Shown here piece after piece: positions 53,913 to 55,532 of a stretch of 64,000 bases of DNA. Location of the stretch: the NCBI GenBank assembly GCA_949288175.1, contig CASEIV010000006.1:77-64076 (forward strand). The letters run 5' to 3'. Each line of letters begins with the position of its first letter. The stretch's first letter is position 1. The DNA comes from an uncultured Eubacteriales bacterium (GTDB lineage Bacteria; Bacillota; Clostridia; TANB77; CAG-508). A program made the translations under genes and the position numbers. The notes beneath the pieces are model-generated. The model was not told the origin of the DNA and did not search any database. It worked only from the letters and a program-made list of their open reading frames with translations.

Positions 53913-55532
53913 CTATCTTGTCCCATTATCCTCACCTATAGGACTTTTTTTGTCCTTTCTTTCATCTATCTTTTGCTTTTTTGATTGAATATTTTCTCTA
54001 TAATTAATTGTTTGTGCAACTTCAATCAATTCTCTTGATGAATCATGTGTTAACAATCTACTATTTAAATAATCTAGAGAATATATTGGAAAACGAGTTC
54101 TATCCAATGCATCAGCATCTCTTATAATATTTGCCATATCACATATCTTATCAATATCTTCTTCACTACAATATTTTCCAAACATTTTATTTGCCATCAT
54201 TCTTATAGCGTCTTGGTTAAATGCATCATGAGCACTAATTAAAAATCCTACTATTTGTTGTTCAGATATTGGTATTTGACCTTTAAATTCTTCTGCATAT
54301 TTTTTCGCCCCCGCCAATCCATGTCCTCCTTCTTGCCAAGCATTCGTACGCCCTATATCATGATAACGTGCAGCTTCCATAAGAATTCTAATCGCATCGT
54401 CAGAATATCCTTCTTTACTGGCTATATAATATGTAAACATTGTTACATTATCAGCATGTCTAACCCCATGATAGTCACATTTGTAAAGTAATTTATGATC
54501 CTCCGTATTTTCATACTCATAAAAAATATGTTTTCCTTTTGAATTTTTTATATAATCAAAAAATTGTTTTGTTGTTATTTGATTAGGTAAATCAAAATGA
54601 TTAATTGCTCTTTCTCTCATAGATTGTATCATATGATTTGGTAATGCTTGGTTTGAATTCATTAACGAAAATGTCTTATACATATTTGTTTTTTTATTAC
54701 ATTCCATTTTTCTTCTTTTTACTACATCAGTGTCACCATACAAGCCTGTTCCTTTTATTTGCTGACTTGCACCACAATTTGCAATAGCGCGCTGTTCTAA
54801 CATAATTAATAAATACATAAAAGCTGTTCGATATTCATCGTTATTCCCAATCATGGAAACTTCATCCATATAATCTTGTATCGGATTATCCATTACAAGA
54901 GCCAACTCACGTAATAAATCTTTTGGCTGAACATCTATCTCAAATACTTTTGTTTTTCCAGTATGATTATTTGGTCCTTTTAAATTCGTTTCTTCTTGTG
55001 ACTTTACTGTATAACTACAAGGTGGTAAAATTATTTCATGTTCAATATCCTTACTTTTTCTATTGGGATTTAACTTATCAACTCTTACAACTTTCATTCC
55101 TTTTGGCAAATTAATTTTTAATAACACCCCACGATTAAATTGTTCTGCAATTTTTTTATCTGTTGACGTAGAAACTAGTCCATTTACACCATCAACATCT
55201 AAGTCATTGCATCCGCGATATACTACCATTGGATCACTTAATGGTGGTTGTTCTGACATATATGTAGCAAAACTTATAACTCTTTGCATATATCCTGGTT
55301 GAATTGGCCAATAATTAATATATTGTTTTGCTTGAGACATATATTTTAGGACTTGATATGTAAGTTTCGAATCTCCCCAATCATCCAATCCTCCAGTTAC
55401 AAAATCAAATGCATAGATTTCTCCTTTTTTATATTGCTCTGGTGTATGTTTTCTTAAGAAATTGTTAATAAAAAAAGCACTATCTTGCTTAAAACCTGCT
55501 AAAAATGAATACACATCCTCTTTATTCTTCAT
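53913..55532 (-). CDS. Fusion protein with an N-terminal R-S-ExE ADP-ribosyltransferase (C3/iota/VIP2-like ART) domain and a C-terminal HD-domain phosphohydrolase. It has no signal peptide. Start at MKNKEDVY (GGAGG RBS).
   Basis: ART motifs with correct order and spacing: VVYRG (Arg), GLVSTSTD (STS), DIEHEIILPP (ExE followed by hydrophobic-L-L-P as in QxEMLLPR of C3). HD motifs: HGVRHADNV...ARYHDIGR...SAHDAF...IIRDADALD. Confidence 0.6.
   Translation of the reverse strand: MKNKEDVYSFLAGFKQDSAFFINNFLRKHTPEQYKKGEIYAFDFVTGGLDDWGDSKLTYQVLKYMSQAKQYINYWPIQPGYMQRVISFATYMSEQPPLSDPMVVYRGCNDLDVDGVNGLVSTSTDKKIAEQFNRGVLLKINLPKGMKVVRVDKLNPNRKSKDIEHEIILPPCSYTVKSQEETNLKGPNNHTGKTKVFEIDVQPKDLLRELALVMDNPIQDYMDEVSMIGNNDEYRTAFMYLLIMLEQRAIANCGASQQIKGTGLYGDTDVVKRRKMECNKKTNMYKTFSLMNSNQALPNHMIQSMRERAINHFDLPNQITTKQFFDYIKNSKGKHIFYEYENTEDHKLLYKCDYHGVRHADNVTMFTYYIASKEGYSDDAIRILMEAARYHDIGRTNAWQEGGHGLAGAKKYAEEFKGQIPISEQQIVGFLISAHDAFNQDAIRMMANKMFGKYCSEEDIDKICDMANIIRDADALDRTRFPIYSLDYLNSRLLTHDSSRELIEVAQTINYRENIQSKKQKIDERKDKKSPIGEDNGTR

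Follow-up and report, generated by a model that had tools for sequence, protein, structure and literature searches.

An ART-HD fusion gene in a dcw cluster

A minus-strand gene at 53913..55532 of the 64,000-nucleotide window analyzed here (the whole stretch at positions 77 to 64,076 of contig CASEIV010000006.1, from an uncultured Eubacteriales bacterium; GenBank assembly GCA_949288175.1) encodes a 539-aa protein in which a predicted ADP-ribosyltransferase (ART) is followed by a predicted HD phosphodiesterase-type hydrolase. Both halves are real and, judging from the conservation of their active-site residues, look catalytically competent. Within the division and cell-wall (dcw) cluster, the gene occupies a variable junction and counts as accessory cargo. 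With somewhat less than even confidence, we favor the explanation that it is a free-standing copy, spread by horizontal exchange, of a two-enzyme toxin-type effector cassette whose two domains act one after the other on a single target.

In the list of open reading frames (ORFs), the gene spans 53913..55544 on the minus strand, or 543 aa counted from the first ATG. The in-frame ATG at 55532 is almost certainly the real start, since a GGAGGA sequence (55537-55542) stands 5 nt ahead of it and the nearest homologues begin at the equivalent MKNK. Residue numbers below follow the 543-aa numbering; 4 is to be subtracted for the 539-aa protein. No signal peptide or transmembrane segment was found in the protein (maximum 19-residue Kyte-Doolittle value, 1.05), in agreement with the cytoplasmic location proposed in a first-pass annotation made from the DNA letters. 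The gene and its parts, all on the minus strand, are as follows, with the codon coordinates of the three ART motifs verified:

53913..55532, minus strand: ART-HD fusion coding sequence, 539 aa from the likely start; the in-frame upstream ATG at 55544 would give 543 aa
54915..55532, minus strand: predicted R-S-E ART domain, residues 5-210, comprising an N-terminal helical bundle (2-97) and a compact beta core (106-207)
55215..55217, minus strand: codon of R110 (V-Y-R-G-C), the Arg of the R-S-E triad
55164..55172, minus strand: codons of S125-T126-S127, the STS motif on beta2 (model strand E124-127)
55035..55043, minus strand: codons of E168-H-E170, the ExE motif, followed by I-I-L-P-P
54555..54914, minus strand: conserved helical inter-domain region, residues 211-330, delimited by the alignment, the extents of half-length matches and the model
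53952..54554, minus strand: predicted HD phosphohydrolase/phosphodiesterase domain, residues 331-531, with ligands H363, H395-D396, H408, H439 and D478 plus H359, D476 and D481

Both domains keep their catalytic residues

To describe conservation in the ART half, we used an alignment of 15 full-length homologues that are 42-98% identical. Across all 15, V108-Y-R110-G-C, E168-x-E170 and L173-P174-P175 are invariant; the STS position is S/T-rich, and residue 127 is S or T in every sequence. Also invariant is a helix near the N-terminus (F14..K19..S22..I26-N27..F29), which resembles the helix motif at the start of C3/VIP2-type ARTs. In an AlphaFold2 model derived from the homologue alignment (pLDDT 82.9, pTM 0.82), the N-terminal half shows an ART fold, with R110 on strand E106-112 and with R110, STS and ExE on consecutive strands of the compact beta core. 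The three signatures read from the letters in the first-pass annotation (VVYRG, GLVSTSTD and EHEIILPP) are therefore present, conserved and placed on an ART-like core; the roles of R, STS and E in ARTs have been reviewed (PMC8120803).

Direct homology searches were less informative: for the window protein, NCBIfam gave no ART match and Pfam no match to PF03496 at E ≤ 1, let alone at the gathering threshold, and searches of PDB sequences and profiles with the full protein or its alignment returned nothing. The ART identity was resolved only through structure prediction and transitive matches via relatives. One of these, a standalone homologue of the N-terminal half (P0043, E 1e-44 to the query), scores 32.8 bits against PF03496, for which the threshold is 23.4; an ORF in L011 scores 19.5 bits, below the cutoff, and a homologue other than P0043 aligned to profile positions 12-173. 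Membership of the window protein in the R-S-E superfamily is thus supported, and membership in the curated Pfam family PF03496 is indirect. The N-terminal domain is, by these sequence criteria, a predicted NAD+-dependent R-S-E mono-ADP-ribosyltransferase of the C3/VIP2/iota superfamily with intact active-site residues.

The C-terminal half matches PF01966 (HD) over residues 362-482, at 24.9 bits against a gathering threshold of 22, and is all-helical in the model, as expected of an HD fold. H359, H363, H395-D396, H408, H439, D476, D478 and D481 are invariant in 22 sequences that cover every architecture of the clade, and the resulting H..HD..H..H..D pattern is typical of two-metal HD phosphodiesterases. 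When a profile of the HD clade was compared with PDB sequences, it recovered HD-GYP (4mcw, E 4e-5), PPX (2e-4) and V-cGAP3. This domain is a predicted metal-dependent HD phosphodiesterase-type hydrolase, its active-site residues intact and conserved, and the full HD motif set noted at first pass stands. Of the two Pfam families put forward at that stage, PF01966 was found in the window protein itself and PF03496 in relatives only; the structure prediction proposed alongside them shows both folds. Taken together, Pfam, the alignments, the model and the fold search bear out a genuine ART-HD fusion with both catalytic residue sets intact.

In the inter-domain region, standalone ART homologues reach to approximately (~) residue 255, and standalone HD homologues start at ~283. 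Among the three conserved regions, the inter-domain region evolves fastest, with a ratio of nonsynonymous to synonymous substitution (dN/dS) of 0.245.

The ART-then-HD order recurs in at least three families

A search of 1.84 billion representative proteins returned 772 relatives, most of which match one half only. The ART-then-HD order is found in the 15 members of the window family, in a second subfamily of ~520-aa proteins that are 32-34% identical (P0041 and P0042), and in two longer proteins, P0090 (~1000 aa) and a 978-aa ORF in L055, in which a strong and canonical PF03496 match (63 bits in P0090; 67 bits over profile positions 10-187 in L055) is directly followed by HD. From these sequence comparisons, no fewer than three families that can be told apart, in unrelated protein contexts, have assembled this order or kept it.

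The L055 locus (L055:5252-10985) comes from a mouse-gut Bacilli metagenome-assembled genome (MAG) and comprises small helical ORFs, a DUF4176 gene, the gene for the 978-aa ART-HD protein and a 103-aa ORF. The ART-HD protein carries glycine-rich hydrophobic N-terminal segments ahead of its canonical PF03496 ART and HD domains. The DUF4176 gene (E 1e-28) lies immediately upstream, and the 103-aa ORF, a candidate immunity gene, starts 2 nt after the ART-HD stop codon. DUF4176 proteins are chaperones of LXG toxins exported by the type VIIb secretion system (T7SSb) (PMC12478183, PMC12482557), and the L055 ART-HD is a probable T7SSb toxin tip, a link that rests on the single DUF4176 match. If that link holds, ART and HD are delivered together, which argues that HD contributes to the effect of the toxin and not to protection of its producer.

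Each half is also found by itself. The N-terminal half alone makes up proteins of ~260-330 aa (among them P0043, P0044, P0046, P0050, P0056 and the L011 ORF, L011:9929-10906), which share a conserved, non-hydrophobic N-terminal extension of 30-80 aa with the motif DW(K/R)sQL..I.KQ. In L011, the ART gene divergently adjoins a gene for a calcineurin-like metallophosphoesterase (L011:8890-9768), a different phosphoesterase beside the same ART. The HD half alone makes up proteins of ~200-290 aa.

Other partners of the HD module were found as well, so the module is not dedicated to ARTs. In at least 40 proteins of ~505 aa (P0021-P0031, P0066, P0080 and others; L023:9122-10672, L028:9935-11458), HD is followed by its commonest partner, a domain of ~170 aa that we call A5, whose invariants are C-x-H-G..SIL..G-ILS, NF-G-N..(W)ISV and Y-x-D-E; in P0016/L010, an A5-like domain precedes an HD that is 51% identical to that of the window. 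A5 has no match in Pfam or PADLOC, and a profile search of 5.8 billion proteins gave 2 unannotated matches. We considered A5 as an ART because of a weak match (E 0.16) to the N-terminal SILEKGILS segment of 7omu, which we take to be a DarT-DarG fusion, and make no such claim. In P0026, leucine-rich repeat (LRR) and transglutaminase-like domains precede HD.

HD also sits at the C-terminal tip of proteins of ~1175-1280 aa and ~1610-1660 aa, the largest class being present in ~20 species. The 1610-1660-aa proteins come from gut Bacilli and Clostridia MAGs (L012:5786-10657, L014:736-5619, L016, L025, L032 and others; P0051, P0053) and share a highly conserved central block (EPDDYYASWN..SHGCCCSY..NLGTA..CLGFTD..LS-PYD..TRHTHNEtVWERR..FKKQPSY) that has no sequence match in Pfam, NCBIfam or PDB. 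Its TRHTHNEtVWERR segment raised the idea of an H-Y-E ART, for which PDB and NCBIfam gave no matches, and we make no claim. From a tblastn range in L014, the giants had seemed to include the complete ART-HD cassette; in BLASTP, what they share is limited to the HD half. In several loci, SEDS (FtsW/RodA) genes lie 2-7 kb downstream of the giant HD genes.

The gene is accessory cargo exchanged independently of its neighbors

The ART-HD gene interrupts the 5' part of a minus-strand dcw cluster, whose genes were assigned with Pfam in the order mraZ, rsmH/mraW, ftsL/DivIC, ART-HD, class-B penicillin-binding protein (PBP), murE and mraY. The ORF list and these neighbors confirm the location between ftsL and the PBP gene given at first pass. 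The G+C content of the gene is ~30%, the same as that of its surroundings. The neighboring genes are the following:

57470-57895, minus strand: mraZ
56204-57133, minus strand: rsmH/mraW
55674-56171, minus strand: ftsL/DivIC
51795-53786, minus strand: class-B PBP (PBP_dimer, Transpeptidase and PASTA domains)
50188-51693, minus strand: murE
49184-50164, minus strand: mraY

That the gene is an insertion is borne out by an empty site in a relative, L077, in which ftsL is followed by the PBP gene across a 231-bp spacer with no gene between; identities between L077 and the window are 83% for mraZ, 81% for rsmH, 60% for ftsL and 75% for the PBP. In the comparison of the window with L008, the synonymous divergence (dS) of the ART-HD gene is 0.37, level with the 0.21-0.43 of the flanks; dN/dS is 0.20 for ART-HD versus 0.04-0.11 for the flanks. 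Each ART-HD segment has a dN/dS of 0.16-0.25, except for a 19-residue tail. These values indicate a functional gene under purifying selection that is less constrained than its neighbors. The spacer between ftsL and the ART-HD ORF is ~190 nt longer in L008 (L008:9690-10013) than in the window (55533-55673) and L007, owing to an extra inserted segment.

The comparison with L007 (L007:3861-5480) gives a different picture: dS is 0.047 for ART-HD and 0.24-0.58 for mraZ, rsmH, ftsL and the PBP gene, so the exchange of the cassette between the window and L007 lineages is far younger than the divergence of the dcw genes on either side. By implication, the cassette by itself underwent a recent recombinational exchange or a sweep.

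Recombinase genes were found beside relatives. A large serine recombinase gene adjoins a relative in L010. In L079 (L079:3-3090), a 71%-identical ART-HD copy is preceded by a large serine recombinase of which the C-terminal part is present (Zn_ribbon_recom, DUF4368) and followed by an 88-aa remnant of the PASTA end of the PBP; from this arrangement, the cassette seems to have taken a piece of its dcw neighbor along when it moved. When neighbors were clustered across 10 loci, the only ones shared among full-length homologues were dcw genes, and there is thus no candidate immunity or partner gene. The ART-HD gene is therefore accessory cargo at a variable dcw junction.

HD-clade genes and unrelated cargo lie near cell-wall genes

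Genomic context varies among homologues. P0006 (52% identical) lies immediately upstream of murE-mraY-ftsW, and P0012 (50% identical) belongs to an island of five genes and 6.5 kb that separates the PBP gene from murE (L082:313-6587). By contrast, P0009/L001 (49% identical) lies between pepC and other housekeeping genes, and the L009 and L083 homologues are also away from the dcw cluster. From P0009, we initially took the dcw position to be meaningless, a view that we revised after finding P0006 and P0012 beside murE-mraY and other HD-clade loci near cell-wall genes. In L077, a different HD-clade protein of 1105 aa (L077:7361-10678) is encoded directly upstream of a unit consisting of a conserved 232-aa gene, a helix-turn-helix (HTH) gene and mraZ, a position that corresponds to just beyond the gene at 58625-59305 of the window. 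Overall, a Mur ligase, MraY, a class-B PBP, SEDS or mraZ/rsmH gene lies within 10 kb in ~17/72 species-level genome loci, against a rough expectation of 2-5%, with many of the loci related by descent.

The junctions next to the PBP gene also hold cargo of other kinds. In L007, a MAG so close to the window that their dcw proteins share 95-98% identity, the PBP gene is followed by a 1078-aa ORF without a Pfam match (L007:7786-11022), where the window has murE. In the window, the PBP and murE genes are separated by a 101-bp spacer (51694-51794). L077 has unrelated ORFs of 263 and 195 aa after its PBP gene (L077:17002-20469). The junction between the PBP gene and murE is thus variable in this clade, with accessory islands inside an otherwise highly conserved operon. 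The expectation at first pass that dcw clusters normally carry no insertion does not hold here, as PBP-gene junctions in this clade often carry them.

The mixed cargo favors an insertion hotspot flanked by highly conserved genes. Recurrence near cell-wall genes, across architectures and in Clostridia as well as Bacilli, leaves room for a functional connection with the envelope or division machinery. The target in the division or wall-synthesis machinery suggested by the first-pass annotation is therefore not established: proximity to dcw and other cell-wall genes exceeds chance, and the neighborhood comparison places some homologues beside murE-mraY, but others lie elsewhere and the cargo is mixed.

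Comparison with known ART and HD systems

Compared with the C3, VIP2, iota-Ia, CDTa and Certhrax ARTs of PF03496, the window protein is too divergent to match the family profile, and the spacing from R to STS is only 15-17 residues, whereas it is ~40 in C3 and VIP2. Unlike C3/VIP2/iota-type toxins, it lacks a signal peptide and a B-component or translocation partner, and it is fused to HD.

A functional analogy is to the Legionella SidE effectors, which provide the precedent for a two-step reaction in which an ART acts first and a phosphodiesterase (PDE) second (PMC10143409; PMC8120803). The domain order differs, however: SidE proteins (SdeA/B/C, SidE) have the PDE before the mono-ART (mART) domain, in a DUB-PDE-mART-CC arrangement with deubiquitinase (DUB) and coiled-coil (CC) domains, whereas the window protein has ART then HD and no detected DUB, coiled-coil or other domains. 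Their substrate is ubiquitin, whereas the host of the window is a gut Firmicute, a bacterial context without a ubiquitin target. The SidE PDE uses an H-H-E triad (H277-H407-E340) and a covalent His-phosphoribosyl intermediate (PMC10143409). In the window HD all of the metal ligands are retained, a sign of classical HD chemistry.

In the fold comparison, of the kind proposed at first pass for the SdeA PDE, SidE and SdeD PDE domains are among the top neighbors, but this match is unspecific, because generic HD folds score equally well or better. A search of all PDB sequences with the HD-clade profile found no SidE-family chain at E ≤ 10, only HD-GYP, PPX, V-cGAP and generic HD proteins. On sequence grounds, the ART-HD protein is not a member of the SidE family.

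Tre1/Tri1- and Lmo0066-type ART toxins of the type VI and type VII secretion systems (T6SS/T7SS) come with a delivery domain and with an immunity protein encoded next to them, in many cases an ADP-ribosylhydrolase of the ARH family; the window gene has neither, and the partner of its ART is an HD domain fused in cis. No macro, ARH or NADAR ADP-ribosyl hydrolase was found in the window protein or its neighbors. T7SSb LXG toxins have an N-terminal LXG or other delivery domain, chaperones (Lap, DUF4176) and a downstream immunity gene, whereas the window protein starts directly with its ART and is encoded between ftsL and the PBP gene. Two-metal HD phosphodiesterases (the HD-GYP proteins PmGH, 4mcw, and PA4781; PgpH; YqeK) and domain III of PPX/GppA share the fold and the H..HD..H..H..D ligands with the window HD, which lacks the GYP motif, the sensor and membrane domains, and the Ppx-GppA ATPase-like domains of these enzymes. 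The HD clade has instead its own signature (RDADALDRTRF, HDIGR..W..GGHG), in effector-like architectures.

A full-text literature search found no description of an ART-HD fusion family, nor of a SidE-like ART and PDE pairing outside Legionella, consistent with the view at first pass that the architecture is undescribed. This ART superfamily, HD phosphodiesterases and T7SS polymorphic toxins were already known. As far as that search shows, a recurrent covalent pairing of ART and HD is undescribed outside the unrelated SidE effectors.

A sequential two-enzyme effector and its alternatives

How might the two domains work? In the explanation that we tentatively favor, the ART would attach ADP-ribose from NAD+ to a target, probably on an arginine, given an ExE motif like that of most ExE-type ARTs. 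The HD domain would then make a metal-aided cut of a phosphodiester or pyrophosphate bond in or beside the ADP-ribose adduct. AMP could be set free by this cut, and the phosphoribosyl group left behind would be out of reach of ordinary ADP-ribosyl hydrolases. Since no immunity gene lies next to the ART-HD gene, the producer may lack the target, or the enzyme may stay inactive until triggered. Our preference for two successive reactions on a single substrate comes from the recurring ART-then-HD order and from the compactness of the model, whose pTM is consistent with fixed inter-domain packing.

Several points weigh against this explanation. The coupling of the two activities is something that we infer. 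Each domain is also found alone (ART at ~300 aa, HD at ~230 aa), and HD also pairs with LRR and transglutaminase-like domains, with A5 and with the giant proteins. Unlike classical polymorphic toxins, the window protein has no delivery domain, signal peptide, or neighboring immunity or chaperone gene. The T7SS assignment of L055 depends on one strong Pfam match, DUF4176, and no LXG domain was matched by Pfam at E ≤ 1 in the N-termini of P0090 and L055. Phage genomes hold no relative of the ART-HD protein, and plasmids only generic HD proteins; among PADLOC defense models the best E-value is 0.006, to an oxidoreductase model, and is not meaningful.

The main rival, possible though unlikely in our estimate, is that the two domains are independent warheads: the ART would modify a protein, and HD would degrade a nucleotide or phospho-compound that has nothing to do with it (cyclic dinucleotides, alarmones and cell-wall precursors are examples), with no chemical hand-over between the domains. 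Consistent with this, both halves occur alone and in other combinations, HD by itself tips the ~1610-1660-aa proteins in ~20 species, and its closest sequence relatives in PDB are the cyclic-dinucleotide HD-GYP and PPX/GppA-type enzymes. However, the same N-to-C order and a conserved linker recur in at least three ART-HD families, and the model predicts a compact two-domain body (pTM 0.82), which argues for selection on the combination and is also compatible with independence.

We are doubtful of a further reading, in which the ART-HD protein would be a self-contained "ADP-ribosylate, then cut" enzyme of gut Firmicutes that converged on the logic of SidE. An arginine of a bacterial target would be ADP-ribosylated, and the two-metal HD would remove AMP to leave an irreversible phosphoribosyl mark, or would transfer the mark; the T7SS warhead and the stand-alone gene would share this chemistry. 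Repeated placement beside dcw and other cell-wall genes is what would point, within this reading, to a target in division or peptidoglycan synthesis.

It is improbable that the gene is a toxin-antidote or abortive-infection module, in which a self-directed ART is restrained by the fused HD, or has its product reversed or processed by it, as in the macro, ARH and NADAR partners of DarT/Tre1-type ARTs, and fires when phages infect or stress sets in. Such a module would suit what is seen here, an accessory locus of one gene that evolves fast, is horizontally exchanged and has no immunity gene of its own, and ART toxins are commonly paired or fused with an ADP-ribose-handling hydrolase, as in Tre1-Tri1 (PMC8120803), the Lmo0066 ART-ARH pair (8za7) and the presumed DarT-DarG fusion 7omu. 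However, there is neither a meaningful PADLOC match nor an association with phage, and in L055 the ART-HD tips a probable T7SS toxin with its own downstream candidate immunity ORF, where an antidote domain would be pointless. Moreover, an HD phosphohydrolase could not fully reverse the modification, because the established chemistry of the HD superfamily does not extend to cleavage of the N-glycosidic Arg-ribose bond.

We likewise give little credence to an endogenous regulator of division or wall synthesis that, by analogy with DraT, would reversibly or irreversibly modify one of the host's own dcw-encoded or associated proteins (FtsZ, a PBP or a Mur enzyme) and be co-regulated with it. Proximity to cell-wall genes would fit such a role, but many of the co-located loci are phylogenetically non-independent. 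The gene is also absent from a close relative whose cluster is otherwise intact (L077), and other homologues are located elsewhere. Its dN/dS of 0.20 exceeds the 0.04-0.11 of dcw genes, from which it has recently been exchanged independently, and the same junctions hold unrelated cargo in sister genomes, as expected of an insertion hotspot. Finally, a decaying or inert passenger with fortuitously retained motifs is hardly credible: although the family is rare and unannotated, with a Pfam HD score just above threshold and no direct ART profile match, most of the case for this reading has already fallen to the conservation data, namely an intact 539-aa ORF, catalytic residues that are invariant across homologues of 42-98% identity, and a dN/dS of 0.16-0.25 outside the 19-residue tail, together with a confidently predicted fold.

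If the two domains cooperate, as in the sequential explanation, they would constitute a second, independently evolved route to protein phosphoribosylation, with a mark not erasable by ordinary ADP-ribosyl hydrolases, and phosphoribosylation would operate in conflicts that gut-microbiome bacteria have with one another or with phages. Should the domains instead act independently, the HD module still defines an unannotated effector superfamily with at least 5 architectures in hundreds of uncultured gut Clostridia and Bacilli, of which the 539-aa protein is an easily testable representative. In either case, an operon that ranks among the most conserved of bacteria contains cargo that is exchanged without its flanks, and relatives lie near cell-wall genes above expectation.

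A promoter-like site and the PBP leader hairpin

Two further features flank the ART-HD gene:

55561..55589, minus strand: candidate promoter of the gene (TTGCAA, 17 nt, TG-n-TAAAAT), a weak site from a consensus scan, in the 141-bp spacer between ftsL and the ORF
53789-53821, minus strand: perfect hairpin of 14 bp, shortly before the start codon of the PBP gene (53786), at the downstream edge of the insertion

The promoter candidate gives no evidence of function, because promoter-like sites in the region number 39, with 39.5 expected from shuffled sequences. The hairpin has a fold energy of -17.3 kcal/mol (z -5.46). Its 3' arm holds the Shine-Dalgarno sequence of the PBP gene (GAGGTG) and ends 2 nt before the start codon, and an equivalent hairpin that sequesters the Shine-Dalgarno sequence precedes the PBP gene in L077 (~14880-14910), where the insert is absent. 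The hairpin was compared with known RNAs, and no Rfam family matches. Nor is it the terminator of the ART-HD gene, as the first-pass annotation had proposed in describing the gene as flanked by its own hairpin/terminator: the hairpin is kept upstream of the PBP gene in insert-free L077 and, with the Shine-Dalgarno sequence in its 3' arm, belongs to the PBP leader. As part of that leader, it may be a conserved element that controls the class-B PBP (FtsI/SpoVD) gene through translation or attenuation.

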